DNA of 64,000 nucleotides from an uncultured Chloroflexia bacterium (lineage in GTDB: Bacteria > Chloroflexota > Limnocylindria > QHBO01): assembly GCA_963816215.1 (NCBI GenBank), contig CAWFKB010000007.1, positions 89,202 through 153,201 of the forward strand, read 5' to 3'. Shown in pieces: positions 8,319-57,871 of the stretch (within the stretch, counting starts at the first letter, position 1; the number at the start of each line of letters is the position of its first letter). A program made the position numbers and the translations under genes. Under the pieces are notes generated by a model. That model had not been told where the DNA came from and made no database searches. It worked only from the letters and a program-made list of their open reading frames with translations.

Positions 8319-9224
8319 TCAGGCGGTCTTGCGCCGCCGGGTCTGACGCGTCTCGTCGGCCTCCGCCGGCTTGGCCGCGCGGCTGCGTTTCGCGGGCGCT
8401 GGCTTGCTCTCGGCCTGGGCGTCCCCGGCGGCCGCATCGCGCCGGGCCTCGCGGGCCGCGGCCACGCTCGCCTCGAGGGCGGCCATGAGGTCGCCGATGC
8501 GGGTGGGCTCGGCCTGGGCGATGGGCGTTGGCTCCTGGCCGGCGACCTTGGCCTCGATGACGCCCATCAGCGCCTCGCGGTATCCGTCGCGGTACTCGGA
8601 CGCGTCGAACGTGCCGGTCATGGACGCGATCAGCTGTTCCGCCATCTTCCGTTCCGAGGCCTTGATCTCGATCCCTTCCCGGTCCACCGCGATCTCCTCG
8701 ATCGGGCGCACCTCGTCGGGCCAGTGGAGGGTGGTCAGGAGCATCGACTCCGAATACGGGTTGATGGCGGCCAGCTGCTCGCGGTCCTTCATGACCACCT
8801 TGCAGATGGCGGTCTTGTTGGCATCGGCCAGGACCTCGCGCAGGAGGAAGAAGGCCTTCTTGCCGACCGGGTCGGGCTCGAGGTAGTAGGCGCTCTTCAC
8901 GAACTGCGCGCCATGGGCTTCCTCATCGGCATCGACGAAGGTCTCGATCTCGATGGCCCGGATCGTCTTGAGCGGCACGGCCTCCAGGTCGTCATCGGTC
9001 ACGACCACGTATCGGCCCTTGCTCCACTCATAACCGCGCACCGTTTCCGAGCGCGGCACGACCTCGTCGTGGAACGGGCAGTAGATCTTCATCTGGATCC
9101 GGTTCAGGCAGCTGGCATGCAGCATGTTGAAGCCGATGCCGCTGGACTCGGTCGCCAGGTACAGCTTGACGGGAATGGTCACCAATCCGAATTGGATGGC
9201 GCCCCGCCACATCGCGCGTGCCAT
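8319..9224 (-). CDS. ku: Ku protein (non-homologous end joining)
   Basis: Classic N-terminus MARAMWRGAIQFGLVTIPVKLY, followed by a Ku core and a basic C-terminal tail. I take the ATG at 9224, since the longer ORF upstream adds a junk-like extension. Confidence 0.85.
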   Translation of the reverse strand: MARAMWRGAIQFGLVTIPVKLYLATESSGIGFNMLHASCLNRIQMKIYCPFHDEVVPRSETVRGYEWSKGRYVVVTDDDLEAVPLKTIRAIEIETFVDADEEAHGAQFVKSAYYLEPDPVGKKAFFLLREVLADANKTAICKVVMKDREQLAAINPYSESMLLTTLHWPDEVRPIEEIAVDREGIEIKASERKMAEQLIASMTGTFDASEYRDGYREALMGVIEAKVAGQEPTPIAQAEPTRIGDLMAALEASVAAAREARRDAAAGDAQAESKPAPAKRSRAAKPAEADETRQTRRRKTA

Positions 9225-9276
9225 AGGGTCGGTGAGGATACACCCGGTCTTCCAGCCCCCCAAACCGGCCGTAGGG

Positions 9277-10358: not shown

Positions 10359-11129
10359 CTACCGCTTGCGCGCCTTCCAGACCTCCTCACTCGGCCAGTT
10401 TCGGGCCCACTCGAGGGTCGAGATGTTCGTGTACCGGGTCTCGGCGCCTTCGGGGGCGCGAATCTCGACCAGGTCGGTGACCTCGAATCCGCTGCTCACC
10501 AGCAACCGGATCATGTCGCCGTGGGACAGGTGGAACTCGACGCTGTCCTCATCGGTCCACTCGAATCGGTGCATCCCGAACTGGGGACGGATGAGCCTGT
10601 CGGTGGCAGGCCCGTCCACCTCGAGGTCGGGCACGCTCAGCATCAGCAGGACGCTGTTGCCCAGGAAGATGAGCTCGCCGCCCGGTCGCAGGAGGCGCGC
10701 CGCCTCGGGGATCCACTGGTACGGGTCGGCCCAGATGGCCGCGCCGTACTCGGAGATCGCCAGGTCGAAGCTCGCCTCGGGAAGCGGCACCTGTTCGGCG
10801 AATCCCAGGATGAGCGGGAACTCCAGCCCGTGCTCGGCCTGGAGGCGTCGCGCGGTCTCGAGCTGGCGGGGCGAGTTGTCGAGGCCCACCACCCGGGCGC
10901 CCCGTCGAGCGAGCCAGGCGGAGACGTAGCCCGTCCCGCAGCCCAGCTCGATGGCGTCCTTCCCCGCCAGGTCGTCCGGCAGGAGATGCAGCTCGGACTC
11001 GGGCACGCCCCAGATCCCCCACCCCGGCTCGTCCGACGCCCAGTTCCGCTCACCGGCCGCCACGTACTCCTCGGCGGCGGTATCCCACCAGGCGCGGTTG
11101 CGTCGGACGTGCTCGGGCAACTCTGCCAT
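10359..11129 (-). CDS. Class I SAM-dependent methyltransferase
   Basis: Motif I ELGCGTGYVSAWLARRGARVVGLD. ATG at 11129. The long N-terminal extension in the ORF track is Arg-rich junk. Confidence 0.75.
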   Translation of the reverse strand: MAELPEHVRRNRAWWDTAAEEYVAAGERNWASDEPGWGIWGVPESELHLLPDDLAGKDAIELGCGTGYVSAWLARRGARVVGLDNSPRQLETARRLQAEHGLEFPLILGFAEQVPLPEASFDLAISEYGAAIWADPYQWIPEAARLLRPGGELIFLGNSVLLMLSVPDLEVDGPATDRLIRPQFGMHRFEWTDEDSVEFHLSHGDMIRLLVSSGFEVTDLVEIRAPEGAETRYTNISTLEWARNWPSEEVWKARKR

Positions 11130-11187
11130 CAGGCGCCGGACGGTACCCGATCGGCCCCGGCCCCGCAGCGATGTGTACGATCGGCGC

Positions 11188-13536
11188 ATGGAGCCGTCCA
11201 CCGCCAACGTCCTGGGCGCGGACGCACCGACGTTCAGCGCCGAGCAGGCGCAGGACATCGTGGCGGCGGTGTGGGGTCGGCGCGGAACGGCGACGCCCCT
11301 CGTCTCCGAGCGGGACCAGAACTTCCGCCTGACCGATGAACACGGCACGTCGTGGGTCCTGAAGATCGCGAACGCGGTCGAGGACCCGGGCGTGGTGGAC
11401 ATGGAGGTCGAGGCCGTCCGCCACGTGGCACGGATGGACCCCGATCTCCCGGTCGCGGTCCCCATCCCGACCGATGACGGGCCGTCGGTTGTCTCGCTCC
11501 CCGGCCCACGTGGCGAGGTGCACCTGGTCCGGCTCCTGCCCTTCATGCCGGGGGCGCACGTCGATGCGGCCGACCTGGATCTCGACGCGATCACGGAGAT
11601 CGGACGGACAACGGCGCGCCTGGGGCGTGCCCTGCGCGGCTTCTTCCACCCGGCCGCGGGGCGCGTGATCCTGTGGGACATCAAGCATCTGGACGAGCTG
11701 CGTCCCCACCTGGGCGCCGTGGCCGACCCCGCGCGACGGGCGATGGTTGATCGGGCCCTGGAACGGTTCGACGTGCGGGTGGCGCCGGCCCTGCCCGGGC
11801 TGCGGGCGCAGGTCATCCACAACGACGCGACCCTGGACAACCTGCTGCTCGACGGCGGCCGCGTGTCAGGGATCGTGGACTTCGGGGACATGGCCCACAC
11901 CGCGCTGATCCTGGACCTGACCGCCATGCTGCAGTCCGTCCTGCGCGGTCGGGCCGACGTGTGGGAGGCCGCCGAGGCGGCCATCCAAGGCTACGGTTCG
12001 GTCATTCCCCTCGAAGCCGAGGAGGGCGACCTGCTGGCCGATCTGCTCGCCGCGCGGATGGTGCAGACCGTGCTCATCTCCGTGTGGCGCACCGCCCAGT
12101 ACCCCAACAACGAGTACATCCGAGGCTGGCTGGAACCGGCCTACGAGCTGCTCGATGCAATGGAGGCCTTCGGCTATGACGAGGCCGTTCGACGCCTGGC
12201 CGCCGCTGCGGGAAGCGCGGGCGCAGGAGCGCGCGATGCGCGCCGCACCATCATCCCGACCGAGGAGCTGCGGGAGCGCCGCCAACGGGTGCTCGGTTCC
12301 GCGCTGTCACCCCTGACCTACGACCGGCCACTGCATCTCGTCCGCGGTGACGGGGTGTGGCTGTACGACGCCGAGGACCGCGCCTACGTGGACGCCTACA
12401 ACAATGTGCCGGTCGTGGGCCACGCCCACCCGGTCGTGGTGGAGGCCATCGCCCGCCAGGCGGCAGACCTGAACACGAACACCCGCTACCTCCACGAGTC
12501 GGTCGTGCTCCTCGCCGAGCGCCTGACGGCCAGCATGCCCGAGGAGCTCGACACCGTCATGTTCGTGAACTCCGGGAGCGAGGCCAACGACCTGGCCTGG
12601 CGGCTGGCGACGGTGGCCACCGGCGGCACCGGCGGCATCTGCACCACCTGGTCGTACCACGGCCTGACCGCGGCCATCGCGGACCTGTCCTCCTCGGAGT
12701 GGCCGCGCGGGGAGCGGCCCGCATCGGTCGAAACGATCCCGGCTCCAGATCCGCTGCGCGGACCCCACCACGACCAGCTGGACGTGGACGTCGCCAGCGC
12801 CGCGGAGCTGGGCGCGGCCGCCGCGCGGCTGGTAGAGCAGGGCGTCACTCCGGCGGCCGTGTTCGTGGACGGGACGTTCACTGCCGATGGAATCTTCCCC
12901 ACCACGCCTGCGTACCTGGCCGAGCTCCGCCGCCAGACCACCGCCGCGAACGTGATCTACGTGGCGGACGAGGTCCAGGCCGGGCACGGTCGGACCGGGG
13001 ACCTGTGGAGCTTCGGGGCGTCGGGGGTCACGCCCGACCTGGTGACCCTGGGCAAGCCGATGGGCAACGGCCACCCGGTGGCGGCGGTCGTCGCCCGCTC
13101 GGAGATCGTGGATCGGTTCGCGGCGGAGCACGAGTACTTCAGCACCTTCGGCGGCAACCCCGTCGCGTGCGCCGCGGCGCTGGCGGTGCTGGACGTGATC
13201 GACGACGAGGGGTTGCTTCAGAACGCCGCGACCGTCGGTGGTCTCCTGCGGGACGCCGTGGAGGCCATGGCCGCCGACCACCCGGCCATCGGTGACGTCC
13301 GGGGCCGCGGCCTGATGGTCGGGGTGGACCTCATGGTCGACCGCGGGACGCGCGAGCCGGCCTCGGACCTGGCGCACCGGGTCATGAACGAGATGCGCGA
13401 GCGCGGAGTCCTGATCAGCACCACCGGGCGTTTGGGCAACGTCCTGAAGATCCGTCCCCCGCTGGTCCTGACCGCGTCCCAGGCCGAGCTGATCATCACC
13501 GCCCTGGACGACTCGCTGCGCGCCGCCGGCGCCTAG
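11188..13536 (+). CDS. Bifunctional fusion: APH/choline-kinase-fold phosphotransferase (N-terminus) + class-III PLP aminotransferase-like domain (C-terminus). Candidate aminoalcohol/hydroxylysine kinase + phospho-lyase.
   Basis: N-terminal half has the kinase catalytic loop [29 protein letters not shown]-terminal half has class-III aminotransferase motifs [16 protein letters not shown] and the PLP-lysine block [10 protein letters not shown]. Starts at ATG 11188. Confidence 0.85.
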
Positions 13537-13559: not shown

Positions 13560-15284
13560 CTACTCCGGGGGCAACGACCCGCGGGTCGCGATCCGCGCGT
13601 CCCGCCCGCCCTGCCCGGTGGCCAGCAGGATCCGACCGCTGGCCTGCGCCTCGAACAACGTTTCGACGGACGCCAGGTCGTCGATGTCGGCCACCGTCTT
13701 GTCCTCGCGGACGCGGACGATCCGCGGGAAGCGCAGCGCAAAGCCGCTCCCGTGGCGCGTGCTGCGCATGATCCGGTCGAACGCGATCTCGACCACGACC
13801 TCGGGCACCACGCTGCGGTAGCGGCCGAAGTCGCGGAGCGTGGTCTTCTGGAAATGCTCGGTGAAGGCGGCGATCTCCGCATCGGTCAGGCCGGTGTAGG
13901 CCTTGCCCACCACGGACAGGCCCGATCCATCGGTCTCGCGCACGGCAAAGGTGTAATCGGACAGCACGCCCCGGCGCTTGCCGTGGCCCCACTCGACGCC
14001 CACCACCACGCAGTCGAGGGTGGCGAGCGCCTTCTTGAGCTTCAGCCAGCCGAGCCCGCGACGACCCGGCTGATAGACCGATGCCGGGTCCTTGACCATG
14101 AGCCCCTCGTTGCGCCGCTCGCGAGCGGCGTCGAACAGAGCGTCCACCTCGTCCGTGCTCGTGGCCCGATCCAGGCGGGCGTACAGGAGCCGGCCATCGG
14201 TCTTGCCCGGCAGATCGAGCGCTTCCAGGGCCGCCCGGCGCTCGCGGAGCGGCGTCTCCAGCAGGTCGCGCCCGTCGACGTGTAGCACGTCGAACGCGAC
14301 CAGGACCACCGGTACGCGCTCCAGGAGTGCGGCGTCGGGATTGACCCGGCCAAGACGCCGCTGGAGGGCGGCGAAGTCCAGGACGGCGCCCGCCTTGAAC
14401 GGGATCAGCTCCCCGTCCAGGACCAGGTCATGGCCGAGGGAGGCAACCGAGCTGACGACCTCCGGGAAGGAGACGGTGATCTCCTTCAGGTCGCGGCTGA
14501 AGAGGCGCGCGGTGCCGCTGGCGAGATGGAGCTGAGCCCGGATGCCGTCGTACTTGTCCTCGATCCAGGCCTCGTCACCCACCCGGCGCACGACCTCCGC
14601 CGCGTCCCCGACCGGGGTCGCGAGCATGGGTCGGATGGGTCGTCCCAGGTGCAGGCCGGCGGTGTCGAGCTGGCCGCGCCGGGCCAGGGTGGCTGCCTCA
14701 CCGGGTTCGCCCAGGAGCATCAGCGCGCGTCGAACCGATGCCTGCGGCGCGTCGAAGGCGGCGGCAATGGCCTCCTCCAACAGGCCCTCACGCAGACCAA
14801 TGCGCGTTTCGCGTGCCGCGATCCGCGCGACGTATCGGGCTTCGTCAGGCGTGGCCCGCCGGAACAGCTCGGTCATGACCGCCACCCGGGCGTCGGTGGT
14901 CGGGGCATCGGCCATGGCCCGGTAGCCGTCGGCCACGTCGCCCACGGTCAGTACCGGGCCCGCGGGACGCTGGGCGGCAAGGAGGTCCGCCGCCGCATCC
15001 CCGAAGTCGGAGTGGCGGAGCCACGCGGCGGACATCGCTTCTTCTGCGGCCCCGCTGGCTGCGGCCAGGGCGGCGGCCTGCTGGACCCATCCCAGGCCGA
15101 GACGGTCCGCGGCGCCGGGGAGCGGCTTGCCCGACAGGAACGTTGCGGCGCGCGGCAGATCCGCGGCCGGCAGGTCATGCAGGTAGGCGGCCAGGATGTC
15201 GCGCTTGGCGAGCTTGGACCGGGTCGCCGCCACCGCGTCCGCGGTGGCGGCAAAGGCACTGAACGGGGAGCTTCGGGATGCCAT
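13560..15284 (-). CDS. lig: ATP-dependent DNA ligase (LigB/Lig1-like, with N-terminal DNA-binding domain)
   Basis: 574 aa. Motif I EDKYDGIRAQ, motif III LDGELI, motif V GLMVKDPASVY, motif VI WLKLK. Confidence 0.85.
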   Translation of the reverse strand: MASRSSPFSAFAATADAVAATRSKLAKRDILAAYLHDLPAADLPRAATFLSGKPLPGAADRLGLGWVQQAAALAAASGAAEEAMSAAWLRHSDFGDAAADLLAAQRPAGPVLTVGDVADGYRAMADAPTTDARVAVMTELFRRATPDEARYVARIAARETRIGLREGLLEEAIAAAFDAPQASVRRALMLLGEPGEAATLARRGQLDTAGLHLGRPIRPMLATPVGDAAEVVRRVGDEAWIEDKYDGIRAQLHLASGTARLFSRDLKEITVSFPEVVSSVASLGHDLVLDGELIPFKAGAVLDFAALQRRLGRVNPDAALLERVPVVLVAFDVLHVDGRDLLETPLRERRAALEALDLPGKTDGRLLYARLDRATSTDEVDALFDAARERRNEGLMVKDPASVYQPGRRGLGWLKLKKALATLDCVVVGVEWGHGKRRGVLSDYTFAVRETDGSGLSVVGKAYTGLTDAEIAAFTEHFQKTTLRDFGRYRSVVPEVVVEIAFDRIMRSTRHGSGFALRFPRIVRVREDKTVADIDDLASVETLFEAQASGRILLATGQGGRDARIATRGSLPPE

Positions 15285-46747: not shown

Positions 46748-48085
46748 TCAGAACCTCACGTCCGACCACAGGTCGAGGGCCTGGCGCAACTCGGGACAGC
46801 TCTGTGCCGCATGCTGGAGTGTCTGCCCGGCAGCGACCGCCTCGACCGCGGCGCGCGCCGCAACTGCGCCGGCTCGGCTCCCTCCGGGATGCCCATGCAC
46901 GCCGCCGCCGAACAGGAAGAAGGCATCCGTGCCGAAGACCGCGTGGAGCTGGGGGAGGTGGCCCGGGTGCAGGCCGCCCGAGGCCACGGGCACGACAGGT
47001 TTGATCGCACCCCACTCCTGGTCGAACAGCGTCCCGCCGCCGGCGGGTGCAAATGCGGCGGTCATCATGCGGCGCCGTTCGCCCATCTCCTCGATCGTTC
47101 CTTCGAGCTTCCCCACGCCCGTGCCGACATGGAGATGATCAACGCCCATCAACCGCGCCCACTTTGCGATGACCAGGAAGTCCACGCCGTGATCGGGGTG
47201 ACGATCCATGACCGCGTGCATGGCCCGGTGTGCGTGCAGCGCCAGTCCCAGGCGCTCAGCCTCCGCACGGAGAGACGCGGTCGCCGCAAAACCCGCCGTC
47301 AGAAAGTCGACCATCACGAAACGTCCCCCCCGATCGGCGACCACGTTGGCGCGGCGAAGCATCTCCTCGGTGTTGGCGGCGGTGACGTTGGCCCAGTAGC
47401 CCTTGCGCTCTCCGGTCTCGGCCTCGGCGCGCTGCACGAGCTCAAGTGTTCGCTCGATGCGTTCGTCAAAGGGAGACCACGCCTGACTGTTGAGGTTCTC
47501 GTCGTCCTTGATGGTGTCGATCCCGCCGCTCAGGGTCTCGTAGGCGCGTCGTGCATGCTCAGCCGGCGAGAGTCCCAGCTTCGGCTTAATGGTTGAGCCC
47601 GTGAGCGCCCTGCCATGCACGTTCAGCTTCTCCCGAACGCCCGCCATGCCGAAGGCCGGCCCCGGGAAGGAATCGACCAGGGGGAGCGGGATGCGCATGT
47701 CGAGCAGGCGGAGCGCGCTCACCGCCTTGAAGCCGAACACATTGCCGACCACGCTGGACAGGATGTTCGGAATGCTGCCGAACTCGAACAGGTCGATCGG
47801 GTACGCGATCCAGACGAGGCCGTTGGCGATCCGGTACACGCGCGCCCGAAGCTCGTAGGCCAGACCTTCGTCGTCCTCGCCGACCTCGGTCCACGTCCCG
47901 GTCGAGGATTCGGCCGCCACCGCAGCCGCGGCCTCTTCCATCGACGTGTCCGCCCGCGGAGCGACCTTGAACGCGACCAGCAGATCCGTCGCAATCGGCA
48001 CGTAGTCGAGGGCCAGGTACAGCTCCTGGTACGAGTGGACTCCACGGGTCCGCTCAGGTCCTGTCCGCGCGGTGGTCTGGCTCAC
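46748..48085 (-). CDS. rbcL: Ribulose-1,5-bisphosphate carboxylase/oxygenase large subunit (no small subunit nearby; form II/III-like)
   Basis: 445 aa with the active-site residues of a genuine RuBisCO: GSTIKPKLGLS, GGIDTIKDDENLNSQ, HAHRAMHAV, HLHVGTGVGKLEG, PVASGGLHPG, LFGGGVHGHPGG. N-terminal GTWTEV and VGNVFGF. Confidence 0.85.
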   Translation of the reverse strand: MSQTTARTGPERTRGVHSYQELYLALDYVPIATDLLVAFKVAPRADTSMEEAAAAVAAESSTGTWTEVGEDDEGLAYELRARVYRIANGLVWIAYPIDLFEFGSIPNILSSVVGNVFGFKAVSALRLLDMRIPLPLVDSFPGPAFGMAGVREKLNVHGRALTGSTIKPKLGLSPAEHARRAYETLSGGIDTIKDDENLNSQAWSPFDERIERTLELVQRAEAETGERKGYWANVTAANTEEMLRRANVVADRGGRFVMVDFLTAGFAATASLRAEAERLGLALHAHRAMHAVMDRHPDHGVDFLVIAKWARLMGVDHLHVGTGVGKLEGTIEEMGERRRMMTAAFAPAGGGTLFDQEWGAIKPVVPVASGGLHPGHLPQLHAVFGTDAFFLFGGGVHGHPGGSRAGAVAARAAVEAVAAGQTLQHAAQSCPELRQALDLWSDVRF

Positions 48086-48190
48086 GGCACGCTCATGCCT
48101 CGGATGTTTGAGTCAGCCTCGCAAACCACCGGCCCGCTGGCATAGGGCCATTTGTACCGAAAACGCCGAACTACCCGCTGACCGGCACGA

Positions 48191-48265
48191 TGGAGCCGAA
48201 GGTGGGATTCGAACCCACGACCGACGGTTTACGAAACCGTTGCTCTACCCCTGAGCTACTTCGGC
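48191..48265 (-). tRNA. tRNA-Thr (anticodon CGT)
   Basis: Hand-folded: acceptor GCCGAAG/CTTCGGC, anticodon stem ACGGT/ACCGT with loop TTCGTAA, T-loop TTCGAAT, discriminator T + CCA encoded. Confidence 0.85.
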
Positions 48266-48331
48266 CTGGCGCCGCGCGATTCTACCGCCTGATCCTTCGG
48301 ACGCCAGATCGGTCCGCTACCCTCGGATCGC

Positions 48332-48823
48332 ATGACTGACGAAGCGCCTGTCCTTCGCGCGCCCACATCGTCGGACTACGACATCCTGATCGGTCAGATC
48401 AATGACTGGTGGGGCGGCCGCGAGATGCGCCACCTGCTGCCGCGCCTCTTCTTCCAGCATTTCGCCCCGCTTTCGTTCGTCGTGGACGGAGATGGCGACG
48501 CGGGACCCATCGCGTTCCTCATCGGCTTCGTGTCGCAGACGGACCCGGACCTGGGCTACATCCACTTCGTGGGCGTCCACCCAAATCGCCGCCGCGAGGG
48601 ATTGGCCGGACTGATGTACGAGACGTTCTTCGCGAAGGCTCGGGCGCGCGGCGTCCGGCGGGTGATGGCCCTCACCTCCCCGGTGAACCGCACGTCCATC
48701 GCCTTCCATCGGTCGATGGGCTTCACCCCGCACCCGGGCCCGGCCGAAGCGGACGGGATCCCGTACCAGCCGGACTACGACGGACCGGGCGACGACCGGG
48801 TGGTGTTCGAGCGACCGGTCTGA
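48332..48823 (+). CDS. GNAT-family N-acetyltransferase
   Basis: 163 aa, with an acetyl-CoA-binding-like segment HPNRRREGLAGLMYETF. Confidence 0.7.
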   Translation: MTDEAPVLRAPTSSDYDILIGQINDWWGGREMRHLLPRLFFQHFAPLSFVVDGDGDAGPIAFLIGFVSQTDPDLGYIHFVGVHPNRRREGLAGLMYETFFAKARARGVRRVMALTSPVNRTSIAFHRSMGFTPHPGPAEADGIPYQPDYDGPGDDRVVFERPV

Positions 48824-48824
48824 C

Positions 48825-49679
48825 TCAGGCCGTGGGCGCGGCCCAGCCGTGGAGCAGCTCGTCGTGGTACCGCGGCCCCCGATCCAGGGTCTTGGGGATG
48901 GGCGCCATCCTGGCCCGGCCCCGCTGGACGAGGGCGAAGTAGGGACACAGGTCGGTGAGCGGGCACAGGCCGCAGATGGGGCGCGGAGCACGGCACACCT
49001 CCCGTCCATGGCGAATGAGCAGGACGTGGCCCGCGTACATGGACTCCGGCGGGACGACCTCCTCGAGCAGGTCGTGAGCTCGGGTCAGATCGGTCCGCTT
49101 GGGGATGAGGCCCAGCCGCTCGGCGACGCGATAGACGTGGGTGTCCACCGGCAGCGCGGGCCGGCCGAACGCGAACAGGAGCACGATCGAGGCGGTCTTG
49201 CGCCCGATGCCCGGCAGTGCCACCAGCCAGTCCCGCGCCTGGTCGAGCGGCCACTCGGCCAGGAATCCCAGGTCCCAGGTCCCGTTGGTGGCGTCGCTGA
49301 CCTCGGCCAGGACCTGCTGGATGCGCCGCGACTTGGTTGGCGCAAGGCCGCCGGCACGGATCACGTCCTCCAGCTCGTCGGTTGGGGCGGCGAGGACCGC
49401 GTCCCAGCCGGGATAGGCGGCCTGCAGCGCGACGAACGCGCGGTGCGAGTTCGTGTCGGCCGTGTTCTGGGCCAGGATGGTGAGGACCAGCTCGGCCACG
49501 GGGTCCAGGCGCGGGCCCGACCAGGTGGGCCAGCCGTATCGCTCGGCCAGGCGGTCGAGGATGGGACCGATCCGCTCGCGCCGCACCCGGCGCTGCGCGG
49601 TGAGCCGGCGCCGTTTGGCGGCCGCCTTGGCAGCCTTCGCGGCTTTCGCGGTCGCCTTGGCCGAGGCCTTGGTGGCCAC
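48825..49679 (-). CDS. nth: Endonuclease III (HhH-GPD, 4Fe-4S) with Lys/Ala-rich N-terminal tail
   Basis: LPGIGRKTA HhH motif and FeS cluster C-x6-C-x2-C-x5-C. N-terminal ATKASAKATAKAAKAAAKRRR tail. GTG start 2 nt after the glycerate kinase stop. Confidence 0.8.
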   Translation of the reverse strand: MATKASAKATAKAAKAAKAAAKRRRLTAQRRVRRERIGPILDRLAERYGWPTWSGPRLDPVAELVLTILAQNTADTNSHRAFVALQAAYPGWDAVLAAPTDELEDVIRAGGLAPTKSRRIQQVLAEVSDATNGTWDLGFLAEWPLDQARDWLVALPGIGRKTASIVLLFAFGRPALPVDTHVYRVAERLGLIPKRTDLTRAHDLLEEVVPPESMYAGHVLLIRHGREVCRAPRPICGLCPLTDLCPYFALVQRGRARMAPIPKTLDRGPRYHDELLHGWAAPTA

Positions 49680-49681
49680 CC

Positions 49682-50857
49682 TCAGCGACGGGCGCCGAGG
49701 CGTCGGCCGATTCCGATGGTGCGGGCAACCCGGGCTGCGGCGTTGGCCAGGAGGCGCTCGGTGTCGGCCATGGCGGAGTCCAGCTCGACCGGTCGATCGA
49801 TGATCGGCTGGACCACGGCGAAGGCACCAGATGCCTCCAGGATCTCGGCCCCGGGGCCGAGGCCGCCGCACAGGAGGGCCACGGGGATGCCGCGCGCGTA
49901 GTGAGCCACGCCCAGCGCCGCCTTGCCGGCCAGGGTCTGCTCGTCGGCTCGTCCCTCGCCGGTGAGGACGAGATCCGCGTCCTGGAGGGCGGCGGGCAGC
50001 CCCACCAGCTCGGCCACCTCCTCGACTCCCGGAAGGACGACCGCTGACGTGAAGCCCAGCAGGCCGGCGGTCGTGCCGCCCGCGGCGCCGGCCCCCGGAA
50101 CGTCGGTGACGTCGCGACCGGTTGCCCGCCGGATCTCGGCGCCCCAGCGGACGAGCGCGGCATCGAGCTCCGCCACGGTGGCCGCATTGGCGCCCTTCTG
50201 GGGGGCGAAGGTCGCAGCCGCCCCGGCAGGCCCGGTCAGCGGGTTGGTGACATCCGAGGCGATCACGATCTCCGTCCCCGCCAGCCGTGGATCGAGTTCG
50301 TCCACCTCGACGTGATCGAGGTTCGACAACGCGGCGCCGCCATCGGGCAGCGGCTCGCCCCGCGCGTCCAGCAGCCGCAATCCGAGTTCCACCAGCAGGC
50401 CGGCGCCCCCGTCTGTCGTCGCCGAGCCACCGAGGCCCACCACGATCCGGCGTGCGCCCGCATCGAGGGCGGCGCGGATGACCCGGCCCGTCCCGCGTGT
50501 GGACGCCGTGCGCGCGTTGGCCGGCGTGCGCTCGGCAGCCGAGAGCCGTGCCAGGCCGCTGGCCTCGGCCATCTCCACGAACGCGGACGATCCAGAGTCC
50601 ATGGACAGCCAGGCGGCCTCCACCGGACGGCCCAGCGGGTCCACCGTGGTGCACACCTGCCGCGTGACCTGCTCCCCGTTGGCCGCGGCGATGGCCGTCA
50701 GCGTTCCCTCCCCGCCGTCCGCCATCGGGATCTGCAGGATCGTGTCGTCGGGTCGGATCGAAGCCCAGCCACGAGCGATGGCCTCGGCCGCGGCCACCGA
50801 GTCCAGCGCGCCGCCGAACGAGTCGGGAGCGACCACCACCCGCAGGGCGGGGCTCAC
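49682..50857 (-). CDS. Glycerate kinase (GlxK/GarK family)
   Basis: 391 aa, glycerate-kinase family throughout (VVAPDSFGG..., GGGAGLL...). ATG overlaps the upstream stop (ATGA). Confidence 0.8.
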   Translation of the reverse strand: MSPALRVVVAPDSFGGALDSVAAAEAIARGWASIRPDDTILQIPMADGGEGTLTAIAAANGEQVTRQVCTTVDPLGRPVEAAWLSMDSGSSAFVEMAEASGLARLSAAERTPANARTASTRGTGRVIRAALDAGARRIVVGLGGSATTDGGAGLLVELGLRLLDARGEPLPDGGAALSNLDHVEVDELDPRLAGTEIVIASDVTNPLTGPAGAAATFAPQKGANAATVAELDAALVRWGAEIRRATGRDVTDVPGAGAAGGTTAGLLGFTSAVVLPGVEEVAELVGLPAALQDADLVLTGEGRADEQTLAGKAALGVAHYARGIPVALLCGGLGPGAEILEASGAFAVVQPIIDRPVELDSAMADTERLLANAAARVARTIGIGRRLGARR

Positions 50858-52767
50858 GAGCTGAGCTCCTTGCGCCGGGCCAGGTAGGCGGGGATGGTGT
50901 TCATCGGCGGACGAATGGCGTCACCCACCTCGCGCACGTCCAGGGTGAATCGGCCGTTCTCCTGGCGGATCTGCTTCATGCGCTCCCCCATATCGGTCAG
51001 CAGCTCCAGGCGCTGGCGTTCCTCGAGCTTGGTGATGGCCGCCTTGAGGATGACGAACGCCATCCGGGACAGGTCAGGCAGGGACTGGTTGCGGTGGATG
51101 CGGCGCTCGAGGTCCACCTGGCCGATCCCGGACAGGCCCACGCGGTCGGCAATGTCGATGAGAAGACCGATTTCGACAGCGTAGCCGGTGAAGAACGGCA
51201 CCGATTCGAGCAGCTCGCGCCGTCCGGCGTATTCGCCCGACAGGGGCTGGATGACCCCGGACAGCTCGGGGAAGAACAGGTTGATCAGGGGCCGCGCCGT
51301 CAGCTCGGTGACCCGCCCACCCTGGTCCGGCTGGAGCTGCCCGCCAGTGACGATGGGACGCTGGTAGAAGCCCTTCACGTACTGGATCCGCGGCTCGCGG
51401 AGCAGTGGCCCCAGCAGGCCGTACACGAACCGGGGCTGGATGTTGCGGATGTCGGTGTCGACCCACACCACCAGGTCGCCGCGCAGCTCGTACAGGCTCT
51501 TCCAGAGCGCCTCGCCCTTCCCCACGTATGCGCCCAGCTCGGGGAGGATCTCGTCGTGCTGGCGGACGGCGGCGCCGAGCTCGCGGGCAATCTCGACCGT
51601 GCGGTCGGTGGAGGCCGAGTCGACGACCAGGAGCTCATCAACCAGCGGGACTCGGTCCATGAGCGCCTCTCGAATGCGGCGTATGGTCAGGCCAATCGTC
51701 TTCTCCTCGTTGAGGGTCGGGAGGCCCACGCTGACGGTCAGGGCCTGCCGTTCCTTGAGATCGACCAGCCGATGGAGGTCGCGGAACTCGCTGGCGTGGA
51801 ACGTGTTCTCCGCGAACCAGCGGTCAACAACAGTCGGCAGGGTGTTGCTCTCCTCGAACGCGGCATCGGCCGCCGGGAGGCTCCCGGCCTCGGCCCGCAG
51901 GTGCTCGAAGGTCCCCGCGGTCACGGGCTGTCGCGACTTCACCACCATCACCGTGGGGCGGGCGCGGGATGCCACCGTCTCCGCCAGGCGCCCGAACAGG
52001 CGACGCCCGGTGCCGCTCCCCGTGGGCTCCGCCGCGGCCCCGACCACCACCAGGTCGTGGTGGGCCGACTCGCGCAGGATGGCGCCGCGCACGGTCGGTG
52101 CCTCGATCACGAGCGGCTTGACCGTCACGCCCCGGGCATGCCGTTTGACGAGCCCGCTCAACGCCGCCTGGCTGCGGGCCAGCGCGTCGGGACCGCCCCC
52201 CGGCGGGACGACGTGAAGGGCCACCAGCTGGGCACCAAATCCGCGGGCCAGGTCCGCCGCGAGGGTCAGGGCCAGCTCGGCGTTGGGGCCGCCACGGACC
52301 GGGACCAGGATGGAGCTCACGCTCCCGAGGCCGCGCTGCTTGACCACGGCGATGTCACATGGCGCGTCGCGGACCACGTCGTCGATCGTGGTCGAGAACA
52401 CCGCTCTCCCGCGTTGTCCCTGTCGCGGAGGTCCGCCCCAGCCGAAGATGACGAGATCGGCCCCGATCTCGGCCACCGCCTCCACGATCCCGTCCGATGC
52501 CTGGCGGCCGATCCGAACCGCGGTCCGGACCTCGACCGACGCGTCATCGCGGAAGTTCGGCACCCGCTGCAGGAGGCGCCGCGCCTCACGAGCGCGGTTG
52601 GCGCCCTCGGCCAGGGACACGCCCTCGGGCACCTCGACGATGCCCAGGGCCGTGATCTCGGTCGCCCGCCGATGGGCCAGGTGCGAGCCGATCCGGACCA
52701 GGTCGCGCGCCGTCCGCGGGTTGGCCAGGGGCATGAGGATCCGATACGGCCCCCGGCGGCGCGCCAT
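50854..52767 (-). CDS. gpgS: Fusion of tandem universal stress protein (UspA) domains with glucosyl-3-phosphoglycerate synthase (GpgS)
   Basis: N-terminal about 300 aa are two Usp-like domains. C-terminal about 320 aa match GpgS closely: LPTLNEE, LVVDSASTDRT, GKGEALWKSL, GGRVTELTARPL, QPLSGEYA, GYAVEIGLLID, HRN. The ATG at 52767 overlaps the upstream stop (TGATG). Confidence 0.7.
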   Translation of the reverse strand: MARRRGPYRILMPLANPRTARDLVRIGSHLAHRRATEITALGIVEVPEGVSLAEGANRAREARRLLQRVPNFRDDASVEVRTAVRIGRQASDGIVEAVAEIGADLVIFGWGGPPRQGQRGRAVFSTTIDDVVRDAPCDIAVVKQRGLGSVSSILVPVRGGPNAELALTLAADLARGFGAQLVALHVVPPGGGPDALARSQAALSGLVKRHARGVTVKPLVIEAPTVRGAILRESAHHDLVVVGAAAEPTGSGTGRRLFGRLAETVASRARPTVMVVKSRQPVTAGTFEHLRAEAGSLPAADAAFEESNTLPTVVDRWFAENTFHASEFRDLHRLVDLKERQALTVSVGLPTLNEEKTIGLTIRRIREALMDRVPLVDELLVVDSASTDRTVEIARELGAAVRQHDEILPELGAYVGKGEALWKSLYELRGDLVVWVDTDIRNIQPRFVYGLLGPLLREPRIQYVKGFYQRPIVTGGQLQPDQGGRVTELTARPLINLFFPELSGVIQPLSGEYAGRRELLESVPFFTGYAVEIGLLIDIADRVGLSGIGQVDLERRIHRNQSLPDLSRMAFVILKAAITKLEERQRLELLTDMGERMKQIRQENGRFTLDVREVGDAIRPPMNTIPAYLARRKELSS

Positions 52768-54065
52768 CAGGACGGTTCCCTTTGCGCGCCAGCGGCCTGC
52801 GCCTGCCAGGCGCGCACGAGCCACGGCTTGAGGTCCTCGAACTCGCGCGCCTGGGCTTCGACCAGCCGCTCGGCCTGGTCGTCGGTCAGGTCACGGACCT
52901 CGTTGATGAATCCCGCCGTGCGCCCGAAGTACAGCCCCGTCAGCCCGGCCAGCAGGGCCTCGCGGTCCATCCCGGAGCGCTGGAAGGCCAGCAGCGCGTC
53001 GAACAGGCAGCGGATCCAGAGCTCCGAGGGAAAGGCGAAGGTGGACGGATCGTCCACGGACAGGGCCCGGACTCGCTCGAGCTGCTCCCCGGCCAGCACC
53101 CGCTTCCAGACCGTTCCCTCGGCCAGCCGCGCGTTGTCGAAGCCATGAACGAGCGCGGCCTGGTCCACCGTGATCGGCTCCGGGGCGATGACCCGCTCGA
53201 AACCGTACTCGGGCACCGGTTCGGAGCCCTTGATCGGCAGCCACTCGGCGGCCTGCTCTCCGGCCAGCCGGAAGAGGGTCCCGACCACCTGGCGGAACAT
53301 CGGTCCCAGGTCGCCGGCGGGGTCCTTGGGGTCGTGGACCTTGGCCCCCAGCCGGGTCTGGCACACCGCGAACCCGCCGGCCAGGGCGTGGTGGGTCATC
53401 CAGATGTCGATCCCGAACCGCGCCGTGCCCTCGTCCCAGTCGGGCAGCTCGAGCAGCGCCTTGACCAGGTCGCGGCTGATGGCGAACTCCCCGCCGATCG
53501 GCTGCCGCAGGCGACGCCCGTACAGGGTCCGGGTCAGCGGGTAGGCGATGTGGTTGGTGATCGTGCCGTCGTACTTGTGGCGGGCGTAGAGCGGCGCGAC
53601 GTAGTCGTAGCCGCCCTTCAGGATCGGTCCGGCCAGGAGCTCGATCCACTCGGGCACGATGCTGCGCAGGTCGGAGTCGACGAGGACGAGCGCCTCGACC
53701 TTCAGCTCGTGCGCGACCTCCAGCAGGGCGCGCACCGCCGATCCCTTCCCGCTGGGTCCCCGGTAGGTGACCGCGATCCGCCGCAGCCGGTGCGGGGGCC
53801 GGATGAGGATCATCTGCTCCAGGTAGTCGGGGCTCTCGGTCGTGACCGCCACCCGGGGCGTGTCGTCGGCGGAGCCGCCGTCCGCGTTCACGAGCACCGG
53901 TTTGAGGTCGGTGAAGTACTGGACCATGCCCGCCGTCGCGGCCCGCACCACGTACCCGATCGTGTCCGCATTCCCGAAGGACGGGATGCCCACCATGAGA
54001 TCCGCCTGGCCCACCCGGCGCACCGCGTTCCATCCGCGTGCGTCCAGAGCGGAGGCGACCTTCAC
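52767..54065 (-). CDS. GT-A-fold glycosyltransferase (GpgS/MpgS-like), specificity unknown
   Basis: GIPSFGNADTIGYVV and VNADGGSADDTP glycosyltransferase motifs. The GTG overlaps the upstream stop (GTGA). Confidence 0.6.
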   Translation of the reverse strand: MKVASALDARGWNAVRRVGQADLMVGIPSFGNADTIGYVVRAATAGMVQYFTDLKPVLVNADGGSADDTPRVAVTTESPDYLEQMILIRPPHRLRRIAVTYRGPSGKGSAVRALLEVAHELKVEALVLVDSDLRSIVPEWIELLAGPILKGGYDYVAPLYARHKYDGTITNHIAYPLTRTLYGRRLRQPIGGEFAISRDLVKALLELPDWDEGTARFGIDIWMTHHALAGGFAVCQTRLGAKVHDPKDPAGDLGPMFRQVVGTLFRLAGEQAAEWLPIKGSEPVPEYGFERVIAPEPITVDQAALVHGFDNARLAEGTVWKRVLAGEQLERVRALSVDDPSTFAFPSELWIRCLFDALLAFQRSGMDREALLAGLTGLYFGRTAGFINEVRDLTDDQAERLVEAQAREFEDLKPWLVRAWQAQAAGAQREPS

Positions 54066-54757
54066 CGGTTGATCACGCGCTTCTTGCGTCCCTTCCAGAA
54101 CAGGTTGGTGGGCCCGGGCGCCCGGTCGGGCTGGATGGCGATCACGATCCAGTCCTCGGTCGCGGTCCCCGGCTGGTAGCGCGAGTTGGCGTGCTTGGCC
54201 ACCGCCTGGCGGAAGCCGTTCTCGTGCCAGGCGTGGAACCACGACCCGAGCGGCATCTTGACCGATGGCGTGACTCGCACGCGGACACTCTCCGAGACCA
54301 GGCCCGACAGGAGCCGGCGCCGCTCCTGGTACGGCACGTCCCCCAGGAATTCGCCGTCGATCTCGACCACGTCCACCACCACGAACGCGCGCCGCTTCTC
54401 GAGCTCCGCGGGATCAGGCCCCTCTTCAGGCAGGTCGCCGGCCTCGTCGGCCAACGCCTCCGACCATCGCTCGGCCGCCGACCCATGGCCCAGGAAGGGC
54501 TGGGCGCTCCAGATCCCGTCGAGCACCGCCTGATCGGCGTCAACCGACACGGCGAGGACCTCGGCCAGCTCGTGGTAGAAGTCGTCGACCGGCACCCCCG
54601 ACCCATCGGTCAGGCGGACGGTCCCGTCGCTGATGGAAGCCACCAGGCGATCCCCGGTCCAGTACGGCTCGAACGACCAGTGCGGGCTGTTGATGCTCAC
54701 TCTCGACTCGGTCGCGAGCTGGGGAAGGATGGGCCCGACGCCGCGCTCGGTGGTCAT
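54062..54757 (-). CDS. ATP-dependent DNA ligase-like protein (second paralog) with motif-I Lys and motif-III Glu substituted. Probably non-catalytic.
   Basis: ILPQLAT...HWSFEPYWTGDR (motif I, K->Y); VLDGIWS (motif III, E->I); FVVVDVVEIDGEFLGDVPYQERRRLL (motif IV); NGFRQAVAKHANSRYQPGTATEDWIVIA (motif V/VI). ATG overlaps the helicase stop (ATGA). Confidence 0.55.
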   Translation of the reverse strand: MTTERGVGPILPQLATESRVSINSPHWSFEPYWTGDRLVASISDGTVRLTDGSGVPVDDFYHELAEVLAVSVDADQAVLDGIWSAQPFLGHGSAAERWSEALADEAGDLPEEGPDPAELEKRRAFVVVDVVEIDGEFLGDVPYQERRRLLSGLVSESVRVRVTPSVKMPLGSWFHAWHENGFRQAVAKHANSRYQPGTATEDWIVIAIQPDRAPGPTNLFWKGRKKRVINR

Positions 54758-56025
54758 CGGTACAGGTTGAGCTCGCCTTCCTCGACCTCCATCCCGACCT
54801 CGGTCTTGATGGCCTGCCAGGCGTCGAGGTCCCACTCCGCGACGAAGGTGATGGCCGTCCCCGCCTTGCCGGCCCGACCGGTGCGGCCCACGCGGTGGAT
54901 ATACGTGTCGGCGTCCTCGGGGATGTCGTAGCTCAGGACGTAGGGCAGGTCCATGATGTCGAGCCCCCGGCTGGCGACGTTGGTCGCCACCAGGAACTGG
55001 ATCTGGCCCGCCTTGAACGCCGCGAGCGTCTTCTCGCGCTCGCGCTGCGACAGCCCGCCGTGGAGGGCGGCCACGTTGCGCCCACGGCGCTTGAGGGACA
55101 TCGTCAGCCGGTCGACCCCGATCTGGGTGTGGCGGAAGACGAGGAGCCGATCGAACCCGAACGTATCGGCCAGCTCGACCATGGCCGCCACCTTGTCCTG
55201 CTCGGCCACGAAGTACACCAGCTGGCGGGTGGTCGCCACCGTGCGCAGCTCCGGCCGGATGGCCACGTGGTCCGCGTCACGGCGCATGAACCGGTCGCAG
55301 ATGCGCAGGATGGCGTACGGCATGGTGGCGCTGAAGAGGGCGGTCTGGCGCTGGCGCGGACAGCGGGCCAGGATCGTCTCCACGTCGACGATGAAGCCCA
55401 TGTCCAGCATCCGGTCCGCCTCGTCCAGGATCACGATCTGGACCGATTCCAGCCGCAGCTCCCCGCGTCGGATGAGGTCCAGGACACGCCCGGGGGTGCC
55501 GACCACGACCTGCGTCCCGCGGTGGAGGGCGGAGACCTGGCGGTCCATGGCCGCCCCGCCGTAGATGGCGACCGTTTTCACGTTCCGGAAACGACCGATG
55601 GCCGCGATCTCGGCGGTGACCTGCTGGCACAGCTCGCGGGTGGGGGTCAGGACCAGGGCCTGCACCGATTTCGACCCGGGGTCTACCTGCTCCACGATGG
55701 GAATGCCAAAGGCCGCGGTCTTGCCGGTGCCCGTCTGGGCCTGGCCGATGAGGTCATGGCCGGCCCGCAGCGACGGGATGGTGCGGGCCTGGACCTCGGT
55801 GGGGGTGACGTAGCCCATCTGCTCCAGGGCCCGGGCGATGGTGACCGGGACCTCGATCTCGCCGAACCGATAGCCCGCCGCGGCCGCGAGGACCGCGGCG
55901 GTCAGGGCCGAGGGGGGCTCGGCCGGCAGGTCGGTGGCGGGGGACGGACGGCCGTCAACGGCTGTCGGTGTGGTGGAAGCGCGGCGTCGGGTGCGGCGGC
56001 GAGGCGTGGTGGGAGTTTGCGGCAA
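54754..56025 (-). CDS. DEAD-box ATP-dependent RNA helicase
   Basis: Q-motif TPTEVQ, AQTGTGKT, DEAD (ILDEADRM), SAT, HRVGRTGR. I chose the TTG at 56025 (GGAG 7 nt upstream) because longer starts would overlap the divergent znuA. Confidence 0.75.
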   Translation of the reverse strand: MPQTPTTPRRRTRRRASTTPTAVDGRPSPATDLPAEPPSALTAAVLAAAAGYRFGEIEVPVTIARALEQMGYVTPTEVQARTIPSLRAGHDLIGQAQTGTGKTAAFGIPIVEQVDPGSKSVQALVLTPTRELCQQVTAEIAAIGRFRNVKTVAIYGGAAMDRQVSALHRGTQVVVGTPGRVLDLIRRGELRLESVQIVILDEADRMLDMGFIVDVETILARCPRQRQTALFSATMPYAILRICDRFMRRDADHVAIRPELRTVATTRQLVYFVAEQDKVAAMVELADTFGFDRLLVFRHTQIGVDRLTMSLKRRGRNVAALHGGLSQREREKTLAAFKAGQIQFLVATNVASRGLDIMDLPYVLSYDIPEDADTYIHRVGRTGRAGKAGTAITFVAEWDLDAWQAIKTEVGMEVEEGELNLYR

Positions 56026-56134
56026 CGAGGGCTCCGGTTCGAAAAACAGTGGTCGTGGGCCGATCGTAGCACGGGGTTCGGCGACTGGCCTGTCGCAGCC
56101 TGAACGCTTGACGAGACCGGGTATCATCCTCGTC

Positions 56135-57041
56135 ATGAGACACGGTTTCATCTCGGTTGGAGTCGCATCGGCCCTCACGGTCGGGATGCTCGCCGGCTGC
56201 ACGTCGTCTGCCAGCCCGTCGCCCGACGCCGCCTTGCACGTCGTTGCCACCACGACCGTGTTCGCAGACCTCGTGGCCCAGGTCGGCGGCGACCGGGTCG
56301 TCGTCCGATCCCTGGTCCCGGCCGGCGGAGAGCCCCATACCTTCGATCCGCGACCGTCGGACGTGATCGCGTTCGCCGATGCCGACCTCGTAGTCATGAA
56401 CGGGCTGGGACTCGATGACTGGGTGGTGGATCTCATGAGCGAGGCCGGCAGTGAGGCGCCGGTTCTCGTCCTGGGCGAGGACCTGCCCGGGTGCGGACTA
56501 CATCACCGACCCCGCTGAGGGCAGCACCAACCCCCACCTGTGGCTGAACGTCGCGTACGCCATCGGCTACGTCGATCGCATCGAGAGCGCACTCGCCGAC
56601 GCCGATCCGGACGGGACCGACGCCTACGCCCAGCGGGCCGACGCGTACCGGGCGGAGCTCGGCGACCTGGACACCTTCGCCCGATCGGAGCTGGCCGCCA
56701 TCCCAGAATCGCAGCGTCGGGTCGTTTCGTTCCATGACGCGTTCCCCTATTTCGCGGCGGCATACGGACTGGAGGTGGTTGGCACTGTGGTCGAGGCGCC
56801 AGGCCAGGACCCGAGCGCAGGGCAGGTGACGGCGCTGATCGACGCGATCCACGATTCCGGGGTCAGCGCCATCTTGAGCGAGGCTCAGTTCCCCGCCGAC
56901 CTCGTGGAGCAGATCGCCGCCGAAACGGGCGTGGAGGTCGTTTCGGACCTGTACAGCGACAGCCTGGGCGACCCGCCGGGTAACTCGTATGCGGGACTCA
57001 TGCGATGGGACGTGGAACGGATCAGCGAGGCGCTTCGATGA
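56135..57041 (+). CDS. znuA: Metal (zinc) ABC transporter substrate-binding lipoprotein, ZnuA/TroA family, with one apparent frameshift
   Basis: Lipoprotein signal MRHGFISVGVASALTVGMLAGC. TroA-fold N-half ends in-frame at about 56518, and the C-half (ADYITDPAEG...HLWLN...) continues in another frame from about 56490 (extra G in CCCGGG). Confidence 0.7.
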
Positions 57042-57871
57042 GCACGGACAATGACGCCGTGACATCCGACGTCGTGCTCCGGGACATCGACGCCGGCTAC
57101 GGCGAAACGGTCGCGCTCGAGCACATCAGCCTCGACGTCCCCGCCGGATCGCTGGTGGCGGTGGTCGGCCCGAACGGAGCCGGAAAGAGCACCCTCCTCA
57201 AGCTGATCGCGGGCCTGCTCAAGCCGTGGAGCGGTGACATCACGGTGCTCGGTGCCGTCCCCGGCGAACACGCCCATCGGGTGGCCTACGTCCCCCAGGC
57301 CGAGATGGTCGACTGGGCGTTCCCGGTCACGGTTTCGCAGGTCGTGATGATGGGTCGATATCCGCTCCTCGGCCCGTGGCACAGGCCCGGACGAGAGGAC
57401 ACTGCAGCCACGGAGCGCGCGCTTGACCGGATGGGCATGCAGGGCCTCCGCGACCGCCAGATTGGAGCGCTGTCAGGAGGGCAGCGGCGGCGGGTGTTCC
57501 TGGCCCGCGCCATGGCGGCCGATGCCCAGCTGTTCCTCCTTGACGAGCCGGTCACCGCCATCGACCCGGTGACCCAGGACGACATCATGGACGTGCTCGG
57601 GGAGGAGGCGGCCGCGGGGCGAACCGTGATCGCGAGCACCCACGACCTGGCCTGCGCCGCGGAGTGCTTCCAGCGGGTGGTGGCCGTGAATCGGACCATC
57701 GTCGCCGACGGCCCATCGTCCATTGCCCTCGACGCGGAGGTCCTGGCCCGCGCCTACGGCGGCCACCTGCTCCGCCTGGAAGGCGGGCGCGTGCTCGTCG
57801 ACGACGCCCACCATCACGACGAGCCGCCGGCCCACGAGCGCCACTTCCACGAAGGCGGTCGCGAGTCGTGA
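57038..57871 (+). CDS. znuC: Metal ABC transporter ATP-binding protein
   Basis: Walker A GPNGAGKST, signature LSGGQRRR, Walker B LFLLDEP. ATG overlaps the znuA stop (ATGA). Confidence 0.8.
   Translation: MSTDNDAVTSDVVLRDIDAGYGETVALEHISLDVPAGSLVAVVGPNGAGKSTLLKLIAGLLKPWSGDITVLGAVPGEHAHRVAYVPQAEMVDWAFPVTVSQVVMMGRYPLLGPWHRPGREDTAATERALDRMGMQGLRDRQIGALSGGQRRRVFLARAMAADAQLFLLDEPVTAIDPVTQDDIMDVLGEEAAAGRTVIASTHDLACAAECFQRVVAVNRTIVADGPSSIALDAEVLARAYGGHLLRLEGGRVLVDDAHHHDEPPAHERHFHEGGRES

Follow-up and report, generated by a model that had tools for sequence, protein, structure and literature searches.

A conserved lysine-less ligase adenylation domain in a glucosylglycerate and endonuclease III gene block of Limnocylindria

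Introduction

In the ligase domain of Mycobacterium tuberculosis LigD, the nucleotidyltransferase (NTase) or adenylation domain contacts adenine N6 through E479, adenine N1 through K618 and the ribose through R486, the motif IV residue E613 binds metal, and the true motif V reads W633-V-K635-D-K637 (PMC8656161, PMC7470946). The NTase fold is also found without its nucleophile and without an OB domain in the m3G-cap-binding domain of snurportin-1 (PDB 1XK5), a eukaryotic protein of the capping-enzyme branch with a guanine cap dinucleotide as its ligand and an importin-beta-binding domain as its fusion partner; a ligase-like domain is further present in the viral A20/A22 polymerase processivity factor of poxviruses (PDB 8WPF chain B), which belongs to a polymerase holoenzyme. 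Proteins that descend from nucleic-acid ligases but are non-catalytic are rare, and a literature search gave no bacterial case. Here we describe a gene for a stand-alone ligase NTase domain of 231 residues that lacks both the lysine nucleophile and the OB domain, and which we call the pseudo-ligase. It lies at 54062..54757 on the minus strand of a 64,000-nucleotide stretch (hereafter the window; G+C 69.8%) from an uncultured Chloroflexia bacterium of the Limnocylindria (assembly GCA_963816215.1, contig CAWFKB010000007.1, positions 89,202 to 153,201).

The pseudo-ligase is found in a block of genes for compatible-solute synthesis and base-excision repair, an unexpected context for a ligase fold. 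Clusters for glucosylglycerate and mannosylglucosylglycerate have been described (GpgS-GpgP, GgS, MggA/B/S), and in the reactions of GgS and of many GpgS enzymes ADP-glucose is the donor and ADP the product (PMC3736172). Our literature search returned no paper on lysine-less or pseudo-ligase bacterial ATP-ligase-domain proteins or on this operon, and nothing on glucosylglycerate clusters in Chloroflexota; a 2026 genomics paper on Limnocylindria is silent both on these clusters and on pseudo-ligases. The family described below represents a branch of the ligase adenylation domain that has become a conserved pseudo-enzyme and that lies in an operon where it would not be expected.

Results

The pseudo-ligase matches the Pfam family PF01068 (ATP-dependent DNA ligase adenylation domain) over residues 24-204 (30.6 bits; gathering score 26.2), and the NCBIfam models for LigD, NHEJ (non-homologous end joining) ligase and LigC match it with E-values of 1e-22 to 1e-12; the curated equivalog cut-offs of these three models lie far above its scores (at best 79 bits vs 989, and 63 vs 228). 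Its best solved relative is the ligase domain of M. tuberculosis LigD (1VS0, 6NHX and 6NHZ; E ~1e-12), and the alignments with PDB chains span only the NTase half of LigD. The OB-fold domain with motif VI is missing: the chain stops 27 residues past the NTase domain, and its relatives are all 200-250 residues long. Between motifs III and IIIa there is a variable acidic insertion. With an NTase fold of the LigD/LigC type and a sequence match at family level, the pseudo-ligase is, as judged by homology, a descendant of the NTase domain of a LigD/LigC-type ATP-dependent DNA ligase. A chance match of motifs, or a different fold, is ruled out by the homology to PF01068 and LigD together with the conservation of the family, and the view put forward in a preliminary description of this DNA, that the gene encodes a lysine-less homologue of a ligase domain, is borne out.

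For the comparison of individual residues, we used LigD numbering as obtained from an alignment with M. tuberculosis LigD, which reproduces all residues named in PMC8656161 (H465, E479, K481, R486, R501, E530, E613, K618, R629, K635 and K637). The LigD residues were mapped onto 119 close and 52 distant homologues, and onto 165 genomic loci. The remnant of motif I reads EPYWTGDR (residues 30-37, 54647..54670, minus strand), and E30, P31, W33, G35 and R37 are invariant in it. The position of the nucleophile K481, occupied by Y32 in the window, is hypervariable in the family; over 164 loci it holds Leu in 74, Tyr in 39, Ala in 15, Val in 9, Ile and His in 7 each, Phe in 4, Ser and Met in 3 each, Cys in 2 and Gln in one, and it is Lys in none. 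In the remnant of motif III (D80-G81-I82, 54512..54520, minus strand) the ribose-contacting E530 has been replaced by Ile, Val or Tyr, with Glu in 0 of 165 loci, so that the K-to-Y and E-to-I changes noted in the preliminary description are both correct. D483 is likewise lost and variable.

The same is true of the residues that handle metal and phosphate. The motif IV Glu (E613) has given way to Ser, Thr or Arg, variably, and the motif V remnant W203-I-V-I-A207 (54137..54151, minus strand) has lost both lysines of LigD; the phosphate-binding residues R501, R629, K635 and K637 correspond to G52, A199, V205 and A207 in the window and vary across the family. The preliminary description had taken motifs IV and V to be conserved, which does not hold, and the two stretches it had assigned to them need to be relabelled: FVVVDVVEIDG is motif IIIa, of which the Asp alone is kept, and AVAKHANSRY is motif IV rather than motif V. 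Essentially invariant in the family are E479 (E30), K618 (K188 of motif IV, 54194..54196, minus strand, kept in 161 of 163 loci), R486 (R37), G484, D528-G529 and D560, and altogether nine positions of the pseudo-ligase are invariant in 164/164 loci. Some invariant residues are specific to the family and differ from those of real ligases (P31, N191, R161, P169 and W177), and these do not resemble a new set of catalytic residues. Because the Lys nucleophile, all residues for the ATP phosphates and the catalytic metal, and the OB domain have been lost, we are confident in predicting that the pseudo-ligase can neither adenylylate itself nor seal nicks.

Homologues fall into a close group (43-90% identity) and a larger distant group (25-38% identity), which we regard as one orthologous family because the gene block and the place within it are the same for both. 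The members come almost entirely from metagenome-assembled genomes of Chloroflexota labelled Candidatus Limnocylindria or Limnocylindrales, and the few oddly labelled bins among them are probably mis-binned. In a scan of GTDB species representatives at least 535 pattern matches were confirmed as encoding a relative, which implies that several hundred genomes carry the family; annotation pipelines name its genes 'LigD' or 'ATP-dependent DNA ligase'. The ratio of nonsynonymous to synonymous substitution rates (dN/dS) between the window and locus L005, one of its closest relatives, is 0.28 for the pseudo-ligase and 0.13-0.18 for the four neighbouring genes that were compared. The pseudo-ligase is thus under purifying selection, yet it is the least constrained gene of its block.

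The order of genes is conserved in the family and runs from the pseudo-ligase to a glycosyltransferase (GT) resembling GgS, a Usp-GpgS fusion, a glycerate kinase and a glycosylase of the endonuclease III (EndoIII) type, encoded by nth (neighbour counts rest on tblastn). The GT gene lies directly 3' of the pseudo-ligase in 138 of the ~149 loci with enough sequence (165 loci in total), frequently with a -1 or -4 nt overlap. The nth gene follows the glycerate kinase gene in 61 of the first 86 loci, where locus length limited the count, and it ends the block in both clades in every locus that reaches far enough; among loci found with the GT as anchor, three out of three have the same gene order. 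A homologue search with the GT gave close relatives only among its best 120 matches (>=68% identity) and is uninformative on whether the sugar cluster occurs without a pseudo-ligase in other phyla. The block lacks the sugar genes in 7-8 loci, where the pseudo-ligase abuts the EndoIII-like gene, the two overlapping by 4 nt in L001; locus L037 has pseudo-ligase, glycerate kinase and nth. In a neighbour-joining tree built on the pseudo-ligase, the loci without sugar genes occupy no fewer than three separate positions, and all invariant residues are intact in them. The tie to the sugar cluster is accordingly one of direct linkage in 138 loci, with retention of the pseudo-ligase in its absence in 7-8 loci of at least three lineages.

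Upstream of the pseudo-ligase the two clades differ. A DEAD-box helicase gene is found there in 81/81 judgeable loci of the clade to which the window belongs and in 0/70 of the other clade, where the upstream gene is a divergent transporter of the MFS/ATG22 type, an epimerase or a short-chain dehydrogenase/reductase (SDR), and where the unit begins with the pseudo-ligase. The association with nth and a DEAD-box RNA helicase proposed in the preliminary description therefore stands for nth, at the end of the block in both clades, and for the helicase only within one of them. As to co-occurrence with Ku, which had been suggested as a check, a screen of the window and of 86 loci gave no Ku gene near the pseudo-ligase, and the latter adjoins neither the Ku nor the POL/PE domains of an NHEJ module (Ku + LigD); its family-wide partners are the glucosylglycerate genes and the EndoIII-like gene. 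In six loci of the helicase-less clade (L009, L011, L013, L019, L026 and L012) a -10-like box, TAnGAT, is located ~6 nt before the start codon of the pseudo-ligase, and a mirrored CTATGATCC box is present for the divergent MFS transporter gene. This suggests that in such loci leaderless transcripts may start from a shared divergent promoter region.

In the window the block consists of six genes on the minus strand. The DEAD-box RNA helicase (54754..56025) is of the CshA/DbpA/RhlE type and has 423 residues if read from a TTG at 56025, a start suggested by homologues of 421-430 residues; its stop overlaps the ATG of the pseudo-ligase (ATGA). The GTG of the GT gene (52767..54065) overlaps the stop of the pseudo-ligase (GTGA), and both junctions are as the preliminary description gave them. 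The GT is a GT-A enzyme that resembles glucosylglycerate synthase, which is also its JGI name, and its nearest solved relatives, distant kin, are GpgS and mannosylglycerate synthase. The next gene begins with an ATG at 52767 that overlaps the GT stop by a single base; this gene (50854..52767) encodes a fusion of two tandem Usp domains with glucosyl-3-phosphoglycerate synthase (Usp-Usp-GpgS), of which residues 333-645 pass the GpgS cut-off of NF010496 (388 bits vs 262). The N-terminal pair of Usp domains is fused to GpgS in every locus examined. The glycerate kinase gene (49682..50857) starts in a GTGA overlap with the GpgS stop, and 2 nt past its own stop is the GTG of the EndoIII-family HhH-GPD glycosylase (48825..49679), which carries an Fe-S motif. 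The latter protein has a Lys/Ala-rich N-terminal tail and is nearest to EndoIII-1 (model for the monofunctional glycosylase DR2438, 172 bits) and EndoIII-3 of Deinococcus radiodurans, not to E. coli Nth. A tRNA gene (48194..48265, minus strand) closes the block, an arrangement shared with L002 and L005.

The six genes from the helicase to the EndoIII-like protein thus either overlap by 1-4 nt or are set apart by a 2-nt spacer. Because of these stop/start overlaps and of the same-strand order in 165 loci, we infer that the pseudo-ligase is co-transcribed with the block. Scans of 47500..57500 for sigma-70 promoters and intrinsic terminators found none, and an Rfam search of the operon's surroundings, in the window and in 11 loci, gave tRNAs but no riboswitch or other regulatory RNA. 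No gene for a GpgP phosphatase is present in the block. In L005 and L006, the closest relatives of the window, a MerB-like gene (organomercurial lyase family; 11082..11678) sits between the glycerate kinase and nth genes, and it is absent in the window. Divergent from the helicase gene, after an intergenic region of ~110 nt, is a gene for the zinc-binding protein ZnuA, which is split over two frames (56135..56518 and 56451..57041, both plus strand, covering profile positions 1-83 and 95-263). The split is due either to a frameshift or to a sequencing error, and it recurs in similar form in L006.

A further lysine-less NTase-only protein, paralog 1, is encoded at 7591..8310 (minus strand) and has 239 residues and the motif EPWWPGAR. 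Its gene adjoins that for Ku (8319..9263, minus strand), as the preliminary description had stated, and does so in L167 too. Its family, with 120 homologues, is restricted to Limnocylindria like that of the pseudo-ligase, and the two share a size of ~200-240 residues and the lack of an OB domain and of the Lys nucleophile. Paralog 1 differs in having kept the acid-Gly pair of motif IV, in its Ku neighbour and in the replacements themselves, which in its family are an invariant Trp for K481, Pro for D483, Thr for E530, Arg for K618 and Pro for K637. In profile-profile comparisons the pseudo-ligase scored 252 against real LigD-type ligases and 291 against its own distant clade, paralog 1 scored 236 against real ligases, and the score of paralog 1 was only 104 against the pseudo-ligase and 90 against the distant clade; a single-sequence search agrees in placing each lysine-less family nearer to real LigD-type ligases than to the other. 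Because each family scores 236-252 against real ligases and the two score 104 against each other, the most fitting view is that each arose through a degeneration of its own from a LigD-type domain. The two copies are then independent, as had been proposed, and a single common family of pseudo-ligases with a Ku-linked copy, the functional family that had also been suggested, is not supported by the profile-profile scores.

Both lysine-less families have a Pro at the position of LigD Gly480, just before the lost Lys (residue 31 of the pseudo-ligase, EPWW in paralog 1), despite their apparently independent degeneration. Neither ligase-like protein matches a defence-system model in PADLOC (0 families for the pseudo-ligase). 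Convergent with the pair of Ku and paralog 1 is a gene for an HTH-WYL-WCX regulator with a PafBC-like architecture (6596..7600, plus strand), which is a neighbour in L167 as well. A full-length ATP-dependent DNA ligase of the LigB type (13560..15284, minus strand) with PF04675, PF01068 (152.8 bits) and PF04679 domains is likely the working ligase of the window. The window also has a gene (10951..13536, plus strand) whose 861-residue product joins an APH-type phosphotransferase domain to a class-III aminotransferase.

Discussion

We put at about even the chances that the pseudo-ligase is a non-catalytic ligand-binding or adaptor module in a stress operon. We favor such a role because the fold is that of a ligase NTase domain, the contacts to adenine and ribose are frozen and those to phosphate and metal lost, no new catalytic set has appeared, purifying selection is relaxed but clear, and linkage to the operon is tight. 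The protein would then act as a non-enzymatic binding or adaptor module much as snurportin-1 does with the capping-enzyme fold; the remnant pocket would probably hold an adenosine-containing ligand, and the pseudo-ligase might modulate a partner from the operon during stress, be it the sugar-synthesis enzymes, the glycosylase or the helicase. Among these candidates the sugar genes have the most frequent and tightest linkage, the linkage to the EndoIII-like gene outlasts the loss of the sugar genes, and that to the helicase is confined to one clade.

Several observations speak against a binding or adaptor role. The pseudo-ligase evolves faster than its neighbors, with 25-38% identity between the clades vs 52-60% for the GT and GpgS, and the adenine-stacking aromatic residue of motif IIIa has become Val, Ile or Leu in the family, which weakens the case for adenine binding. 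The conservation of E30, K188 and R37 could serve fold stability alone, and inheritance, instead of function, could be part of the reason why gene order is conserved in a single class.

A role as an accessory to DNA repair, in which the dead domain recognizes nicks or the products of AP (apurinic/apyrimidinic) lyase activity and hands off or shields base-excision intermediates together with the EndoIII-like glycosylase and, in one clade, the helicase, would account for the presence of nth at the end of the block in both clades and for the loci, scattered over the tree, in which an intact pseudo-ligase lies against nth without sugar genes; the fold is also derived from a nick-binding domain. 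The contacts to AMP and to the 5'-phosphate of a nick (K481, K635, K637 and R629) are gone, however, and the protein has neither an OB domain nor any other DNA-binding domain. It is, moreover, acidic, with a median isoelectric point of 5.05 for the clade and values below 6 in 40 of 40 sampled members, whereas the NTase regions of real LigD-type ligases have a median of 6.8, and the helicase is an RNA-type DEAD-box protein found in one clade only, so that we consider an accessory role in repair, the direction in which the preliminary description pointed, rather unlikely. The pseudo-ligase could alternatively be a dedicated component or regulator of glucosylglycerate synthesis, which for instance binds ADP-glucose, ADP or AMP and tunes the GgS-like GT or GpgS. 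This would fit with the GT gene directly downstream in nearly all judgeable loci, with its frequent stop/start overlaps, with the first place of the pseudo-ligase in the unit of the helicase-less clade, behind a -10-like box, and with the retained contacts to adenine and ribose, given that ADP-glucose is used by GgS and many GpgS enzymes (PMC3736172). Nonetheless, the pseudo-ligase is intact where the block has no sugar genes, the residues needed to bind the phosphates of ADP or an ADP-sugar are lost, and no characterized glucosylglycerate pathway includes such a protein; a dedicated regulator of this kind is in our view improbable.

That the protein has remained an enzyme, be it a ligase or nucleotidyltransferase with another nucleophile or the bearer of a new activity such as the GpgP phosphatase, might be thought of since the block is without a phosphatase gene and K188 is nearly invariant. 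Yet the metal and phosphate ligands are all lost and variable, no new conserved cluster of Asp, His, Cys or Lys is seen, and the position of the former nucleophile is hypervariable, all of which makes an enzymatic role highly unlikely. The highest dN/dS of the operon could likewise be taken as the sign of a decaying remnant without function, but a value of 0.28, an open reading frame that has stayed whole across 165 loci and in hundreds of genomes at a length of 200-250 residues, and nine residues invariant throughout leave next to no probability for decay, and a decaying pseudogene is effectively refuted by these conservation data.

Within the binding or adaptor reading, we speculate, with considerable doubt, that the dead domain has been turned to a new use, as sensor or carrier of an adenosine-containing molecule (ADP-glucose, ADP, AMP or an adenosine-type 5' RNA end) through which it couples the nucleotide or stress state of the cell to compatible-solute synthesis and nucleic-acid maintenance. 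If true, it would be a bacterial, adenine-specific counterpart of the snurportin cap-binding domain, a role that has never been described for a ligase fold.

Whatever its precise role, the family is clean, and it is well covered by hundreds of genomes in which catalytic, phosphate and metal residues are gone and adenine and ribose contacts are frozen; it makes a tractable case for testing how the fold of an enzyme comes to be re-used as a binding module. The annotation of its genes as 'LigD' has a practical side, as it inflates the predicted NHEJ and ligase capacity of Limnocylindria, an abundant class in soil and freshwater.

The operon can be compared to two described types. Operons of an Lhr-type DEXH helicase with a LigE-type ligase (TIGR04121/TIGR04120) resemble it in that a helicase gene adjoins a gene of the ATP-ligase family, but the window does not belong to this type: the TIGR04121 and TIGR04120 models give 55 bits vs 850 and 16 vs 400, the helicase is CshA/DbpA-like (427 bits with the CshA model) and the ligase domain is dead. 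The likeness to clusters for glucosylglycerate and mannosylglucosylglycerate lies in the combination of GpgS, a GgS-like GT and glycerate kinase in one unit, whereas a ligase-like protein, an EndoIII gene and a Usp-GpgS fusion are found in none of the described clusters (PMC3736172), and GpgP is missing from the window block.

As to the protein itself, the ligase domain of M. tuberculosis LigD has the Lys nucleophile, the Glu residues of motifs III and IV, the motif V lysines, R501, R629 and an OB domain with motif VI, and the pseudo-ligase, at ~230 residues and standing alone, is without all of these. The ligase-like domain of the poxvirus A20/A22 factor is a much weaker structural match. No sequence relationship between the pseudo-ligase and snurportin-1 was detected, and the lineage, the guanine ligand and the fusion partner of the latter set the two apart; what they have in common is an NTase fold that has lost both its nucleophile and its OB domain.

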